Source: an uncultured Clostridia bacterium
GTDB taxonomy: Bacteria; Bacillota; Clostridia; TANB77; CAG-508
DNA length: 64,000 nucleotides
Assembly (NCBI GenBank): GCA_947630445.1
Contig: CANRHQ010000003.1
Span: 11,733-75,732, forward strand
Direction: 5' to 3'
The position numbers were made by a program, and so were the translations under genes. Below the pieces are notes generated by a model. The model did no database searches. It was given only the letters and a program-made list of their open reading frames with translations, and was not told where the DNA came from. Positions 9,105 through 14,984 of this stretch are shown in pieces (the stretch's first letter is position 1; every line of letters begins with the position of its first letter).

Positions 9105-9776
9105 ATGGATTATGAATTAATGATGAATGGAACTATAAAAATTGGGCAACATGCTCCAGATTTTTCATCAGATACTACATATGGACCTGTATGTCTTAAT
9201 GATTATAAAGGAAAATGGTTAGTTTTATTTTCACATCCTGGTGATTTTACTCCAGTTTGTACTACTGAAATGATTGCCTTTGCTAAAGCAAATCCTTATT
9301 TTGAAAAACTTAATACCTCTCTACTTGGTTTAAGTATAGATAGTAATCCATCTCATTTAGCTTGGATGCATGATATTTATAATATGACTGGAATTGTACT
9401 TCCATTTCCTATTATTGCAGATAGAAATGGTACAATTGCGAGAAAATATGGAATGATAGCAAGTGATATAAGTGCAACTGAAACAGTTAGAAATGTTTTT
9501 ATTATTGATCCTGAAGGAATTGTTAGGGTTATTCTTATTTACCCATTAAATATTGGTAGATTTATTCCTGAAATTTTAAGAATAGTTCAAGCATTACAAA
9601 TGTCTGAATGTTCAAAAAGTTCTACTCCTGCAAATTGGATACCAGGTCAACCTGTAATACAGCCACCTCCTCAAACTTATCCACTTTTACAGGAAAGATT
9701 AAATATGATTCCAAAAAATAATGATAGCATGAGTTGGTATTTAACTTTTAAAGAACCTCCCAAAGAATGTAATTAA
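9105..9776 (+). CDS. Peroxiredoxin (1-Cys/Prx6-like)
   Basis: GQHAPDF...WLVLFSHPGDFTPVCTTE peroxidatic-Cys motif. The start was set to the ATG at 9105, which follows AAAGGAG. Confidence 0.85.
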   Translation: MDYELMMNGTIKIGQHAPDFSSDTTYGPVCLNDYKGKWLVLFSHPGDFTPVCTTEMIAFAKANPYFEKLNTSLLGLSIDSNPSHLAWMHDIYNMTGIVLPFPIIADRNGTIARKYGMIASDISATETVRNVFIIDPEGIVRVILIYPLNIGRFIPEILRIVQALQMSECSKSSTPANWIPGQPVIQPPPQTYPLLQERLNMIPKNNDSMSWYLTFKEPPKECN

Positions 9777-9810
9777 AAGATGTAAATATCTTAAATTTAC
9801 ATCTTTTTTA
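9775..9810. terminator. Bidirectional hairpin terminator between convergent prx and GT2 genes
   Basis: AAAAGATGTAAAT (9775..9787) pairs with ATTTACATCTTTT (9795..9807), with A/T runs on both sides. It overlaps both stop codons. Confidence 0.6.
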
Positions 9811-10483
9811 TTATAATTTTAAAATGTCTAATTCCATCTCGAACTGTTCTTAAATGCGATTTTCCATTTCTTTTATCTTTGTAAAAATTTATTGGAACTT
9901 CTGCCATTTTAATATTTTGTTTTCTTGCTTTTATAATCATTTCTGTTGCTAACTCCATACCTTTTGAATTACATCCGATTTCTAACATTTTTTCTGTATC
10001 AAAACCTCTTAATCCACAGTTAAAGTCTCCTATACTTATATCATATTTTTTTCTAGCTATCCAACTTATTAGAGGTGTTCCTATATATCTATGCAAAAAC
10101 TTCATTGCCCCTTTTTCCATATTTCCTTTGAATCTATTGCCAATTACCAATTGATATCCTTCAAGTAGTTTCTCATATATAGGCAATACTTCTAATAAAT
10201 TATAACTATCATCAGCATCTATCATTATAGTATATTTTCCTTTAGCCAATCTAATTCCTTCTCTTATTGCTACACCATATCCTCTTTCTTCCACAGTTTC
10301 TGTTCTAGCACCTAAACTTTTAGATATTTCCTCTGTATTATCAGTGCTTCCATTATTTATTACTAATATTTCTCCATTTATATTATTTTCTTCTAAAAAT
10401 TTTTTTCCTTTTTCTATACATATTGCTATTGTTTTTTCTTCATTAAGTGCTGGTATTAATATTGTTAAATCTAATTGGTTCAT
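9797..10483 (-). CDS. Family 2 glycosyltransferase (polyprenol-phosphate sugar transferase-like, soluble form)
   Basis: 228 aa. LTILIPALNEE...NNGSTD...DADDS motifs. Overlaps the upstream gene by 4 nt (ATGA-type coupling). Confidence 0.85.
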   Translation of the reverse strand: MNQLDLTILIPALNEEKTIAICIEKGKKFLEENNINGEILVINNGSTDNTEEISKSLGARTETVEERGYGVAIREGIRLAKGKYTIMIDADDSYNLLEVLPIYEKLLEGYQLVIGNRFKGNMEKGAMKFLHRYIGTPLISWIARKKYDISIGDFNCGLRGFDTEKMLEIGCNSKGMELATEMIIKARKQNIKMAEVPINFYKDKRNGKSHLRTVRDGIRHFKIIIKKM

Positions 10484-11820
10484 TTATATTCTCCTTTTTT
10501 ATTATCTTTTTTAAAATTAATTTCCTTTAATAGTAATTTATAATTTAAGCAATCTATAATTATATAAAAAAGTGCTATTATTGTTATAATTTGTTCTCTA
10601 AATGTAAAAAAAGAATGATAATATGAATGACTCACAAGTATTAAATATCTCATATATGGCATAACTGATATAAAAAGCAATATTAAAGAAAACCATTTTT
10701 TTCTTATGTTTTTCCAGTCAATACTTATTATTAAAACAAATATACTTATTAATACAATTTTTAATATATCTGATTTTCTCTTTATAATATTTATTGGATA
10801 TAAATTATGAAAATTCTCATACAATGATCCTATATATAATTCTTTTGTACTTATATATCCTTTTTTTCCATTAATTCTAAATAACAAGTTATCTTTTACA
10901 TAATCTAGTGCATTTATATTTAATATAATTGATGCTAAAAGCCATTTTGTTAGCCACATTGCAACATACGCTATTCCCCATATTACACAACTTTTTATTA
11001 GAAATATAATTTCTTCTTTTATTGTCTTTATTCTTCCTTCTTCTTTTCTAACTAATAATACTAACAACATTGGTACTAAAAATGTTATTAATTCCGTTGT
11101 TAAAAAATCAAAGAAACATGTTAATATTCCTGTAATAAAAAATAGTTTGTATAATAATTGATTTCCCTTTTTTTCTATTTGTATTGCAATTATACTTACA
11201 ATTAACATTATATAAAATGTCCATGAATATTCTAAACAATATGGTACAATTGGAAATGCAATTAATATCATAGAAATAATATATATTATTGCTATTTTTT
11301 TACTTTTTCTTAATAATATAAAGAAAAGTAATATAGCAAGCATCCATAATAAAATTTTATTTAAAAGGTATATTTCTTCTATATTAAAAATTGTTAAAAG
11401 TGGTCTTAAAATTACAATACTTCCATGCCAATATCTTATATATTGTTGATTTGGCTCTTTTTCTTCTTTTATTGATTTTATAAAATCATAGTTTACATCT
11501 GCATAGGATTTTTGATAATATTTATCTACCATTACTGATTCAAGTGGTTTACTTGAATCAATATTATTTATTATATTTAGAATTATTGTGTCTGCATAAT
11601 AATGTACAAATGTATATTCTCTTCTTTTTAAAATCTCTTCCATTCCAGATCTTTTTTCAAAAAATGGTACAGACTCTTTTAAGTTTTCTTGTATAGCACT
11701 TTTGGGAATTAATGATGTAATAATTAATAAAAATAATACTACTAAAACTGTAAATACAAAGTACATTATATATTTTATTATTTCTACTAATGTATTTTTT
11801 ATTTTAATAGCATTGAACAT
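10480..11820 (-). CDS. Polytopic membrane protein (about 10 or more TM helices); possible GT-C-type glycosyltransferase, by context only
   Basis: 446 aa and highly hydrophobic. AAAGGAG RBS. Translationally coupled to the GT2 gene. The function is inferred, not recognised. Confidence 0.7.
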   Translation of the reverse strand: MFNAIKIKNTLVEIIKYIMYFVFTVLVVLFLLIITSLIPKSAIQENLKESVPFFEKRSGMEEILKRREYTFVHYYADTIILNIINNIDSSKPLESVMVDKYYQKSYADVNYDFIKSIKEEKEPNQQYIRYWHGSIVILRPLLTIFNIEEIYLLNKILLWMLAILLFFILLRKSKKIAIIYIISMILIAFPIVPYCLEYSWTFYIMLIVSIIAIQIEKKGNQLLYKLFFITGILTCFFDFLTTELITFLVPMLLVLLVRKEEGRIKTIKEEIIFLIKSCVIWGIAYVAMWLTKWLLASIILNINALDYVKDNLLFRINGKKGYISTKELYIGSLYENFHNLYPINIIKRKSDILKIVLISIFVLIISIDWKNIRKKWFSLILLFISVMPYMRYLILVSHSYYHSFFTFREQIITIIALFYIIIDCLNYKLLLKEINFKKDNKKGEYK

Positions 11821-11873
11821 ATCAAAAATTTCTCCTTTTCTTTATTTTTATTTTAATATTATTTTACAAATTT

Positions 11874-11902
11874 ATTCTAACAATAAAGTATACTATTTGC
11901 AA
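11874..11902 (-). promoter_or_regulatory. Fixed-orientation promoter of the membrane-protein/GT2 operon, paralogous to the promoters inside the three invertible cassettes
   Basis: The minus strand reads ATAAAGTA-TTGCAA-ATAGTATACTTTATTGT-TAGAAT (17-nt spacer with an extended TG). The cassettes carry ATAAAGTA-TTGCAA-TTAGTATATTTTATTGT-TAAAAT. Confidence 0.65.
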
Positions 11903-11922
11903 TACTTTATAAGGAAAATCTT

Positions 11923-12006
11923 TTATGATGTAATAATTAATGAAAATAGTACTATTAAAATTGTAATACAAAATACTTTGCATTTCATTTTAATAGTACT
12001 AAACAT
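11923..12006 (-). repeat. Remnant copy 1 of the 5' end of the 446-aa membrane-protein gene (with RBS remnant)
   Basis: The minus strand reads ATG TTT AGT ACT ATT AAA ATG AAA ... = MFSTIKMKCKVFCITILIVLFSLIITS*. This is homologous to MFNAIKIKNTLVEIIKYIMYFVFTVLVVLFLLIITS of the real gene at 11820. The plus-strand ORF 11702..12010 in the track is its antisense shadow. Confidence 0.75.
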
Positions 12007-12038
12007 ATAAAAAATTCTTCTTTTATTTGTTTTTGCAA

Positions 12039-13190
12039 TTATTCTTCTAATGTTATATTTGAGTCTTCAGAACGAGTTTCATATATTTCTCTTAATTTAG
12101 GACAAGTTCCTTTTAATACTAAATTAGCATCTGGATTAGTAGAAGCATTTTGCAAGCAATCATAATAGTATATACAATCAGATGAATTAATAATTAATTC
12201 TCCAGTAAGACAATAACATTCACAGAAACACATACGCAAATCATCAACAAGCATTGGAATCGTCGGAGCAGTAGTTAATGAAACACAACCGTTAAAAGTA
12301 GAGGTCATCGAAGTAACCGTAGATGGAATCTCAGGTGCAATAACTAAATCTTCACAATTCAAAAATGTGCTACTCATGTTAATAACTTCATACCATTCAT
12401 CCTCTCCATCTACCTTTATATACTGAGGAACTTTTCCTTGTATCTTCCCTTCAACAATATTTGAATTATCATATCCTGGAGACGCACTACAACCAGACAC
12501 CTCATTTAAAGCAAATCCCTTAACAGTACCATCAAACATCAGAATCTTTCGATACCTCCAAAGATCTAAATTAACTGAATTTCCATCTGTTCCTATTCCA
12601 ATATCTCCATTTTCTGGACTTTGACTTGGATGTTTTTTTGCATTTTCTTTAGCTGCCTCCCAGTCTATTTCTGTTGTTGAATCTGATATACTAGTTATAT
12701 ATCCTATTTCTTCCATATTCTCTTTTTTATCATAATATACTAATATATATTCTTCTGTAATTCTTTCACTTGAAAGTTTTACATTTTCTATACTTGCTAC
12801 TTTTGATAATTTATCACTTTCTTCTAACTTATATACATCCTTTGTTCCAGTTCCGTTTCCATATGCTATTGTTTTTCCTAGTAAATTATATATATTTACT
12901 GTATAATCATCATTTACAAATCCTTTTCTTTGTAAATATTCCATTAAATGTTCATTTAAACCTATTGCCTCTTTTTCTACCATATAATTTTGTACTTCTA
13001 TTTGTAATCCTTCATATACTTCTGCATGTGCATTTTTTGTTTTTGCTTCTTTTGAATTTGTTATTATTCCACTATCTCCTGCTAACATTGCAATTGATGT
13101 TCCTGCTAATATTAGCAATACTACAATAGTAACTACTAATGCTATTAGCGTTATACCATTTTGTTTTTCTCTTGTTTCTTTCTCTTTCAT
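12039..13190 (-). CDS. Pilin-like-N-terminus surface/secreted protein with BspA-type leucine-rich repeats (paralog A)
   Basis: 383 aa. N-terminus MKEKETREKQNG-ITLIALVVTIVVLLILAG has a short charged leader ending in G followed by a hydrophobic helix, which is prepilin-like but lacks Glu at +5. C-terminal repeats follow the pattern STF.nC..L..AP.IP..V..M.STFNGC.SLTTAP.IP. AAAGGAGGAACC RBS. Confidence 0.85.
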   Translation of the reverse strand: MKEKETREKQNGITLIALVVTIVVLLILAGTSIAMLAGDSGIITNSKEAKTKNAHAEVYEGLQIEVQNYMVEKEAIGLNEHLMEYLQRKGFVNDDYTVNIYNLLGKTIAYGNGTGTKDVYKLEESDKLSKVASIENVKLSSERITEEYILVYYDKKENMEEIGYITSISDSTTEIDWEAAKENAKKHPSQSPENGDIGIGTDGNSVNLDLWRYRKILMFDGTVKGFALNEVSGCSASPGYDNSNIVEGKIQGKVPQYIKVDGEDEWYEVINMSSTFLNCEDLVIAPEIPSTVTSMTSTFNGCVSLTTAPTIPMLVDDLRMCFCECYCLTGELIINSSDCIYYYDCLQNASTNPDANLVLKGTCPKLREIYETRSEDSNITLEE

Positions 13191-13214
13191 TGGTTCCTCC
13201 TTTATTTGTTTTTT

Positions 13215-13411
13215 CTTAATCTCTATAATTAAAGAAAAATAAAAAAGATGTAAATAACTAAAAATATGTATATTTACATCTTTTCTTGATTTTTAATTTT
13301 CATAATTTTATAAAAATATTTCTAAAAAAATTTTTTTCATAAAGTATTGCAATTAGTATATTTTATTGTTAAAATTATTTTATGAATAAATCTTTAATTA
13401 TAGAGATTAAG
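13215..13411. promoter_or_regulatory. Candidate invertible promoter cassette (inverton) A
   Basis: Perfect 21-bp inverted repeat: CTTAATCTCTATAATTAAAGA at 13215..13235 and its reverse complement at 13391..13411. The 155-bp interior holds a hairpin (13243..13256 / 13271..13284, AAAAGATGTAAATA / TATTTACATCTTTT). It also holds a plus-strand promoter: TTGCAA 13347..13352, 17-nt spacer ending TGT, TAAAAT 13370..13375. The promoter points away from gene A. Confidence 0.7.
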
Positions 13412-13515
13412 GATTTTTTTGTTCTGTAAAATAATAATGTATTTATTTTTATATTCATTTTTTATAATGATATATTTCCTTTTAAATTTTCTTCTATCAT
13501 ACTTTTGCGAATCAA

Positions 13516-13596
13516 TTATGTAATAATTAATAAAAATAGTACTATTAAAATTATAATACAAAATACTTTGCATTTCATTTTAATAGTACTAAAAAT
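13516..13596 (-). repeat. Remnant copy 2 of the 5' end of the membrane-protein gene (start codon mutated to ATT)
   Basis: Near-identical to remnant copy 1: ...AGTACTATTAAAATGAAATGCAAAGTATTTTGTATTATAATTTTAATAGTACTATTTTTATTAATTATTACATAA on the minus strand. Track ORF 13505..13750 is its antisense shadow. Confidence 0.7.
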
Positions 13597-13620
13597 ATTA
13601 AAATTTTTCCTTTTTTTCTA

Positions 13621-14766
13621 TTATTCCTCTAATGTTATATGTGATTCCTCAGAACGAGTTTCATATATATCTTCTAAATTAGGACAAGTTCCTTTCAATA
13701 CTAAATTAGCATCTGGATTAGTAGAAGCATTTCGCAAGCAGCCATCATAACCATACCAACCATCAAGCAACTCAGCCGAATTAATAATTAATTCTCCAGT
13801 AAGATTACTGCATCCATAAAAGCAATAACTCAAATCTCTAACTTGTGTTGGAATCATTGGTGCAGTAGTTAAACTTTTACAGTCATTAAAAGTCGAAGAC
13901 ATGTAAGTAACTGTATCAGGAATATCAGGTGCAATAACTAAATTAGAACAACTATAAAAAGTCGCAAGCATATAAGTAACAACACGCCATTGGTCTTCCC
14001 CAGCTACTTTTATATATTGAGGAACTTTTCCTTGTATTTTCCCATCAACAATATCAGAATTCTGATATGCTGGTTCTGAAAAGCTACCCATACTCGCACA
14101 CAACACAATTGAATTGTCTCCTTCCTTTTGATACTTCCAAAGATCCATATTAACTGGATTTCCATCTGTTCCTATTCCAATATCTCCATTTTCTGAACTT
14201 TGGCTTGGATGTTTTTTTGCATTTTCTATAGCCTTTTCCCAGTCTATTTCTGTTGAATCTGATATACTAGTTATATATCCTATTTCTTCCATATTCTCTT
14301 TTTTATCATAATATACTAATATATATTCTTCTGTAATTCTTTCACTTGAAAGTTTTACATTTTCTATACTTGCTACTTTTGATAATTTATCACTTTCTTC
14401 TAACTTATATACATCCTTTGTTCCACTTCCATTTCCGTATTCTATTGTTTTTCCTAATAAATTATATATATTTACTGTATAATCATCATTTATGAATCCT
14501 TTTCTTTGTAAATATTCCATTAAATGCTCATTTAAACCTCTTGTCTCTTTTTCTACCATATAATTCTGTGTTTCTATCTGTAATACCTCATACACTTCTG
14601 CGTGTGCATTTTTTGTTTTTGCCTCTTTTGAATTTGTTATTATTCCATTATCTCCTGATAACATTGCAATTGATGTTCCCGCTAATATTAATAATACTAC
14701 AATCGTTACTACTAATGCTATTAGCGTTATACCTTTTTGTTTTTCTCTTGTTTTTTCCTCTTTCAT
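13621..14766 (-). CDS. Pilin-like-N-terminus surface/secreted protein with BspA-type leucine-rich repeats (paralog B)
   Basis: 381 aa. The first ~205 aa and the last ~30 aa are nearly identical to paralog A. The central LRR-bearing part has diverged. Same RBS and leader. Confidence 0.85.
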   Translation of the reverse strand: MKEEKTREKQKGITLIALVVTIVVLLILAGTSIAMLSGDNGIITNSKEAKTKNAHAEVYEVLQIETQNYMVEKETRGLNEHLMEYLQRKGFINDDYTVNIYNLLGKTIEYGNGSGTKDVYKLEESDKLSKVASIENVKLSSERITEEYILVYYDKKENMEEIGYITSISDSTEIDWEKAIENAKKHPSQSSENGDIGIGTDGNPVNMDLWKYQKEGDNSIVLCASMGSFSEPAYQNSDIVDGKIQGKVPQYIKVAGEDQWRVVTYMLATFYSCSNLVIAPDIPDTVTYMSSTFNDCKSLTTAPMIPTQVRDLSYCFYGCSNLTGELIINSAELLDGWYGYDGCLRNASTNPDANLVLKGTCPNLEDIYETRSEESHITLEE

Positions 14767-14790: not shown

Positions 14791-14984
14791 CTTAATCTTT
14801 GTAATTAAAGAAAAATAAAAAGATGTAAATAACTTAAATATGTATATTTACATCTTTTTTGATTTTTAATTTTCATAAATTTATAAAAATATTTGTAAAA
14901 AATTTTTCCTCATAAAGTATTGCAATTAGTATATTTTATTGTTAAAATTATTTCATAGAATAATCTTTAATTACAAAGATTAAG
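14791..14984. promoter_or_regulatory. Candidate invertible promoter cassette (inverton) B
   Basis: Perfect 21-bp inverted repeat: CTTAATCTTTGTAATTAAAGA at 14791..14811 and its reverse complement at 14964..14984. Hairpin at 14818..14831 / 14845..14858. Plus-strand promoter: TTGCAA 14920..14925, 17-nt spacer, TAAAAT 14943..14948, pointing away from gene B. Confidence 0.7.

Follow-up and report, generated by a model that had tools for sequence, protein, structure and literature searches.

The 64,000-nucleotide stretch of Clostridia DNA analyzed here (the window) carries promoters inside invertible cassettes beside pilin-like genes, and a box closely resembling those promoters stands before an operon encoding a polytopic membrane protein and a GT2 enzyme. 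The locus raises the question of whether this box is a copy of the switchable promoter that can no longer invert and, if so, whether it serves the operon as a promoter of its own.

A cassette promoter box upstream of the membrane-protein/GT2 operon

The box was defined by homology to the cassettes and by a promoter scan and occupies 11874..11910 on the minus strand, where the window reads ATAAAGTATTGCAAATAGTATACTTTATTGTTAGAAT from 11910 to 11874 (37 nt); the interval 11874..11902 singled out in the earlier note is its -35 to -10 portion. On the minus strand it is laid out as ATAAAGTA-TTGCAA-ATAGTATACTTTATTGT-TAGAAT, with ATAAAGTA at 11910-11903, the -35 hexamer TTGCAA at 11902-11897, a 17-nt spacer at 11896-11880 that contains the TG of an extended -10 (11882-11881), and the -10 hexamer TAGAAT at 11879-11874. 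The cassette form is ATAAAGTA-TTGCAA-TTAGTATATTTTATTGT-TAAAAT, and the two agree at 34 of 37 positions. The three substitutions lie at box positions 15, 23, and 34, which are the first spacer base, a central spacer base, and -10 position 3; left unchanged are the -35, the 17-nt spacing, the TG, and -10 positions 1, 2, and 6. In 100 shuffles of the window, 0 37-mers came within three mismatches of the cassette box. The 1.28-Mb genome (26.6% GC) holds five mismatch-free boxes and the fixed copy as the sole diverged one, and BLAST aligned the fixed copy with the cassette over 80 nt at 81% identity (E = 1e-15). These comparisons bear out the earlier claim that the fixed box is a paralog of the cassette promoter.

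The cassette box is identical in all five invertons of this genome, of which three are in the window (plus-strand boxes at 13339, 14912, and 39044), one is on contig C15, and one is on contig C23. Each cassette is ~195 bp long, carries at its two ends perfect inverted repeats of 21-22 nt (CTTAATCT-N6/7-TTAAAGA, with a core that differs between cassettes), and contains a bidirectional hairpin. As assembled, four cassettes are OFF, with the box pointing away from the adjacent pilin-like gene, and one is ON. Inverton 1, an OFF cassette of the donor type, spans 13215..13411, with repeats at 13215-13235 and 13391-13411, an internal hairpin, and its box at 13339-13375 on the plus strand, in the OFF orientation. 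Inverton 2, at 14791..14984 upstream of LRR gene 2, is also OFF. The ON cassette lies outside the window, on contig C15 of this genome (G000 contig C15:26653-26846), where the box faces the pilin-like gene and reads through the inner repeat and a 23-nt leader toward the ATG (MKEKETREKQKGIT start), 59 nt from the -10. The pilin-like genes at the four OFF cassettes start MKEKETREKQ.GITLIALV, a weak match to the N-terminal methylation motif, and LRR gene 2 has a further weak match, to the BspA-type LRR family. An apparent flipped inverton 2, an opposite-strand joint 14789/14984 in a Logan contig (run X3) at 90% likeness, was gone at 97%, and this joint probably comes from the ON paralog on C15.

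The features of the fixed box are those of a sigma-70/sigma-A extended -10 promoter in its hexamers, spacer, TG, and direction toward a gene. Its -35, TTGCAA, matches TTGACA at 4/6 positions, and its -10, TAGAAT, matches TATAAT at 5/6 with T1, A2, and T6 retained; a consensus promoter scan reported the site with exactly these hexamers, the 17-nt spacing, and the TG extension. The box points at the 446-aa gene, as the earlier note had said, with 53 nt between the end of the -10 and the ATG at 11820, close to the 59 nt of the ON cassette on C15. A GGAG ribosome-binding site lies between box and ATG at 11835-11832, and the position of the -10 predicts a transcription start near 11866-11868. The same scan reported 56 sites in 5.8 kb against 49 expected for 27%-GC DNA; matches to the promoter consensus are common in such DNA, and the case for the fixed box therefore depends on homology, not on consensus. 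In the 218-nt gap before the operon, the scan found two promoter-like sites on the operon strand, and the fixed box is the one with a TG extension.

Homologous boxes in further species of the genus bear on whether the -35/-10 pair is a promoter at all. A second species (G068) carries TTGACT-TTATTATATTTTATTGT-TAAAAT inside perfect 19-nt repeats upstream of a pilin-like gene, and another (G061) carries TTGACA-TTGTTATATTTTATTGC-TAAAAT inside 28-nt repeats; in both, the surrounding repeats differ in sequence from those of this genome. In G010, TTGACA-TTAGTATATTTTATTGT-TAAAAT (L019 1563-1591) stands 440 nt upstream of a pilin-like gene with no surrounding repeats. All three boxes share the 17-nt spacing, the TG, and TAAAAT with the cassette box. 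The hexamers, spacing, and TG are kept while the recombination sites change, and this is the strongest argument at hand for taking the box as a sigma-A promoter. Together with the 59-nt geometry of the ON cassette, these boxes lend weight to the proposal in the earlier note that the conserved pair is a real promoter. The G010 box was also considered as an rRNA promoter; an Rfam search of five relatives' loci gave 0 matches, the box stands upstream of a pilin-like gene, and we rejected this assignment. Downstream of the G010 box, not around it, lies an imperfect 16-nt inverted-repeat pair (L019 1608-1879). Exact-pattern scans for the box in genome-contig and metagenome-contig collections gave 0 matches.

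Flanks and junctions of the fixed copy

Homology to the cassette continues for 14 nt upstream of the fixed box (11911..11924, minus strand, 10/14 identical); farther upstream the match to the cassette is 17/46, which is background. The junction between the fixed fragment and remnant 1, a partial copy of the start of the 446-aa gene, is at about 11924/11925, so that the homology abuts the remnant as the earlier note had it. On the other side, homology was said to end just past the -10. The match does drop there, to 17/25 across an ambiguous stretch (11845..11873, minus strand) that contains the downstream junction; its exact limit is a range. Within it, 11845-11871 is also 81% like the 446-aa gene's own start at 11796-11822 (family D9), and since the bases after the -10 resemble both the cassette and the gene start, the junction can be placed only between 11873 and 11849. 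Beyond it, the leader of the 446-aa gene (11821..11848, minus strand) is homologous to the leaders in both remnants. Rearrangement junctions thus lie on both sides of the fixed box, and the suggestion of a recombination junction is substantiated.

We looked for flanking inverted repeats in two ways. The 21-nt repeat consensus, CTTAATCT-N6-TTAAAGA, matched at the invertons only and not around the fixed box, and a search across the box for 14-mers with a reverse-complement partner returned just low-complexity 12-of-14 matches; as a positive control, the repeats of all three window invertons were recovered. A decayed inverted repeat in the stretch after the -10 was considered; by hand alignment, this stretch matches the cassette repeat at only about 11/21 positions and resembles the start of the 446-aa gene just as well. 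Neither four ENA assemblies nor Logan contigs from four runs showed the opposite orientation of the fixed copy, contigs being prone to drop rare variants. Of the features of an inverton, the fixed copy therefore has the promoter and lacks the flanking repeats and a second orientation. We conclude from these alignments and searches that it is a non-invertible paralog of the cassette promoter bounded by rearrangement junctions, in line with the earlier note, which had seen no flanking repeats.

The box is identical and the locus colinear in those same assemblies and runs. Six contigs with an identical 446-aa protein (from four ENA assemblies and two Logan contigs) are 99.9-100% identical to the window, and at this identity the assemblies represent one strain and are not independent; all of them come from one rabbit-gut study. 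A search for sequencing runs covering 10480-11900 brought up no RNA run, and the four DNA runs with the locus consist of Logan contigs at low depth, from a single rabbit-gut sample. An apparently independent variant at 99.0% identity (L052) was rejected, as it is a contig that jumps between tandem units. This 3-kb Logan contig (run X3) passes from 11963 to 13554 over 40 shared bases and skips one 1590-nt tandem unit, which is either a variant with one LRR gene fewer or an assembly k-mer collapse.

The operon and its counterparts in relatives

The box faces two genes. The polytopic membrane protein of 446 aa (10480..11820, minus strand, ATG at 11820) belongs to no family in Pfam or NCBIfam, and a profile search of PDB sequences found nothing meaningful. 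Its AlphaFold2 model is confident (pLDDT 87, pTM 0.88), and a Foldseek search of the PDB with this model gave no match (best E 0.9). With no family and no PDB fold match, we withheld the name GT-C enzyme. The 228-aa GT2 gene (9797..10483, minus strand) encodes a polyprenyl-phosphate sugar synthase-type protein whose closest resemblance is to AglJ, DPM, and PpgS, and overlaps the 446-aa gene by 4 nt; both genes are intact and full-length compared with their homologs. The membrane gene and GT2 are adjacent in about half of 80 loci from Clostridia and Lachnospiraceae, and some relatives carry fusions of the two proteins (P0059, P0086, P0102). Judged by this gene context, the membrane protein and GT2 are a functional pair, and a glycosylation role for the module is plausible.

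A terminator-like bidirectional hairpin with stem AAGATGTAAAT / ATTTACATCTT closes the operon at 9776..9807, between the convergent GT2 and peroxiredoxin genes, with the GT2 stop codon within the stem. At the other end of the operon, the 5' coding region of the 446-aa gene (11727-11815, minus strand) forms the same long hairpin as the two remnants (11947-12001 and 13529-13592), with pairing kept through a double change (G-C to A-U) and three wobble changes, which hints at a selected structure right after the start codon, perhaps an attenuator or translation control.

In relatives whose membrane protein is 42-65% identical, an LRR-pilin gene is followed at a short distance by the membrane gene and, as a rule, by GT2. 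The gap before the membrane gene measures 14-89 nt in eight clear cases, in contrast to 218 nt here: G005 has 83 nt; G015, whose membrane gene has no GT2 behind it, 14 nt; G010, 61 nt; four further species (L059/L060/L061, L062-L064, L065, and L066), 59-62 nt; and L079, 89 nt. It usually carries a typical terminator hairpin, e.g., AAAGGGAAATTC...GGACTTCCCTTTT, and only about 25 nt are left between hairpin and ATG, which leaves no room for a promoter. In these relatives, the gap layout makes it most likely that the module is transcribed by read-through from the pilin promoter. A motif resembling the box (≤6 mismatches in 29) was found in 0/101 relatives' loci carrying the membrane gene, and we take the fixed box to be derived in this lineage rather than ancestral. 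One relative shows an arrangement of another sort: in G015 (L004 96-311), a fixed GTATTGCAA-N17-TAAAAT promoter is followed by a perfect 15-nt inverted-repeat pair enclosing 111 nt with a (CA)10 run, upstream of an LRR-pilin gene. This element could be a different kind of switch, acting post-initiation or by slippage.

In the window, the minus strand runs from inverton 2 through LRR gene 2 (13621-14766, minus strand), remnant 2, a flank, and inverton 1 to LRR gene 1, and then through remnant 1, the promoter fragment, and the leader to the 446-aa gene and GT2. LRR gene 1 is pilin-like, encodes 383 aa, and lies under inverton 1 (12039..13190, minus strand); the 218 nt that separate it from the 446-aa gene include remnant 1 and then the promoter fragment. 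Remnant 1 (11925..12034, minus strand) comprises the leader and roughly the first 27 codons of the 446-aa gene and ends 14 nt from the fixed box. It forms a hairpin at 11947-12001 (about 24 bp, -21.3 kcal/mol, z -5.0) followed by AUUUUCAUU; the stem is rich in A and U, and the hairpin was not called as a terminator in the consensus scan. Remnant 2 (13466..13624, minus strand), with the leader and about 53 codon-equivalents, forms the same hairpin (-21.3 kcal/mol, z -4.5) with a U-rich tail. The remnants are 91% alike mutually and about 80% like the 446-aa gene.

Origin of the fixed box and its likely role

Remnant 2 joins codon ~53 of the membrane gene to a match of the flank that follows the stop codon of a P-type ATPase gene, and on this alignment it is the clean junction of a 1.58-kb tandem duplication running from the P-type ATPase flank to codon ~53. 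Duplication alone would put LRR gene 1 directly before the intact gene, and a second local rearrangement is therefore needed; as the gene order implies, this event must have added remnant 1 (11925-12034) and a 51-76-nt cassette fragment. The promoter fragment is oriented opposite to the neighboring cassettes as assembled. It could have been copied from a cassette in the ON state with subsequent loss of the LRR copy, or it could have arrived by templated insertion, inverted, where a small duplication was joined. LRR genes 1 and 2 are mosaics, with one block 97% identical and another 74%; this mosaicism and the similarity of the remnants point to probable gene conversion between the units, which would blur the order of events.

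The explanation that best accommodates this structure, in which the order of rearrangements is one we infer, would begin with an ancestor that had the membrane gene and GT2 right behind an LRR-pilin gene and transcribed them through read-through of the hairpin. In this lineage, the LRR genes would have gained ON/OFF control by invertons, and the locus would have been tandemly duplicated; a later local rearrangement would have set a hairpin-forming remnant, and then a promoter fragment, before the intact 446-aa gene. With the promoter half of an inverton copied before it, the operon would be freed from the phase-variable LRR gene 1. The fixed box would be expected to fire constitutively from about 11867 because it cannot invert, and its transcript would cover both the 446-aa gene and GT2, which is translationally coupled to it. 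Any promoter farther upstream is separated from the operon by two hairpins, those of the cassette and of remnant 1; within the cassettes, too, a hairpin precedes the promoter, so that the fixed copy would re-create a terminator-then-promoter arrangement from different material. We offer, as a tentative generalization that we hold doubtful at present, that invertons may act as donors of portable promoters: the promoter half of a cassette nearby might be copied the other way round into the junction left by a small local duplication, e.g., by template switching, and might form with the remnant hairpin a terminator-promoter insulator that rescues a shared, possibly glycosylation, module when the upstream pilin gene turns phase-variable.

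Several other readings of the locus were weighed against this one. The box might be an inert scar of the rearrangement, with transcription of the operon supplied by LRR gene 1 read-through in the ON state of inverton 1 or by some other weak promoter in the AT-rich gap. Relatives most likely express the operon without a promoter of its own in the gap, consensus-like sites are abundant (ATGAAA-17-TACAAT at 11988-11960 is one), and a copy with three substitutions only is perhaps too young for decay to show. Against this, the recognition elements are all intact, the substitutions having struck tolerant positions only, and the box has diverged less than the homologous sequence on its two sides (34/37 versus 27/39, Fisher p = 0.02, in a flank alignment that is itself uncertain), which is weak evidence for constraint on the box. 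In addition, a strong hairpin with a U-rich tail separates LRR gene 1 from the box, and inverton 1, which governs LRR gene 1, is OFF in every assembly, yet both operon genes have stayed intact and full-length. We consider an inert scar unlikely, and assign a probability of roughly 0.65 to the box being the operon's own, permanently ON promoter, which would uncouple the module from the switch of LRR gene 1. The box is most likely a sigma-A/sigma-70-type promoter with an extended -10, always on and captured from an inverton.

The descent could also have run the other way, with the fixed promoter ancestral and the cassettes built from it. The operon terminator at 9776-9807 has the same stem, AAGATGTAAAT, as the hairpins inside all the cassettes, so that the operon is bracketed by likenesses of the cassette promoter and of the cassette hairpin, as such a history might leave it. 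We regard this as very improbable, given that the box is missing from the relatives' membrane-gene loci (0/101), that their gap is just 14-89 nt where an LRR gene stands directly upstream, and that the genus has at least two more species with repeat-flanked cassettes containing a homologous box; the fixed copy also lies downstream of a gene remnant and hence postdates the duplication. Nor do we give much credence to the fixed copy still being switchable through recombination with the corresponding 76-80-nt stretch of inverton 1 or 2, which would flip 1.4-3 kb including LRR gene 1. Potential arms exist, in that 11849-11924/13325-13400 and 11845-11924/14898-14977 form inverted repeats of 79-81% identity, but their longest perfect run is 14 nt, the 21-nt repeats of the recombinase type are absent, and all assemblies are colinear, with no contig containing such a joint. 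The chance of this residual switching seems to us very small, and we proceed with capture of a cassette promoter by the operon as the preferred reading.

The fixed copy can be set beside systems already described. It shares with invertons, the invertible promoters of gut bacteria (Jiang et al. 2019, Science 363:181, as cited in PMC11685472), and in particular with its sibling cassettes, the promoter box and a distance to the start codon like that of the ON cassette; it differs from them in having no inverted repeats and one observed orientation, and is not itself an inverton. Its closest known analog is found in Bacteroides fragilis, where PSC alone among eight capsule loci has a promoter that is non-invertible and constitutively ON (PMC11685472, PMC13139388). 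Both cases combine surface-structure loci under invertible promoters with one fixed member and a glycan-related operon, although the PSC promoter is always ON and the copy described here is predicted to be so from its sequence. They differ in that the present example is from a Firmicute with -35/-10 elements of the sigma-A type, whereas those of Bacteroides are of the -33/-7 type; in that the fixed copy here is demonstrably a fragment of an invertible cassette (34/37); and in that it precedes an accessory two-gene module rather than a paralogous structural locus. In Clostridioides difficile, phase-locked variants of the flagellar switch arise through shortened inverted repeats (PMC12282940), and recV mutants (PMC7446863) belong beside them. 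There too, a switch promoter or regulatory segment of a member of the Clostridia is fixed in one orientation via a change in its repeats, but the whole switch stays in place and its repeats differ by a single base, whereas the fixed copy lacks both repeats along with the cassette's spacer and hairpin half, and stands in a new place before a different gene.

A fixed, always-on promoter among invertible ones is thus an arrangement already known, and the fixed copy is most likely a modest new example of it. Its significance is evolutionary and local and leaves the general understanding of invertons unchanged: the locus would preserve a base-pair record of how expression of a gene can become independent again after the gene before it has turned phase-variable. 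An active fixed copy would serve as an internal yardstick of cassette promoter strength and would show that the membrane-protein/GT2 module is meant for expression whatever the state of the neighboring switch. Such expression would suit a module shared by several phase-variable pilin-like proteins from scattered sites in the genome.
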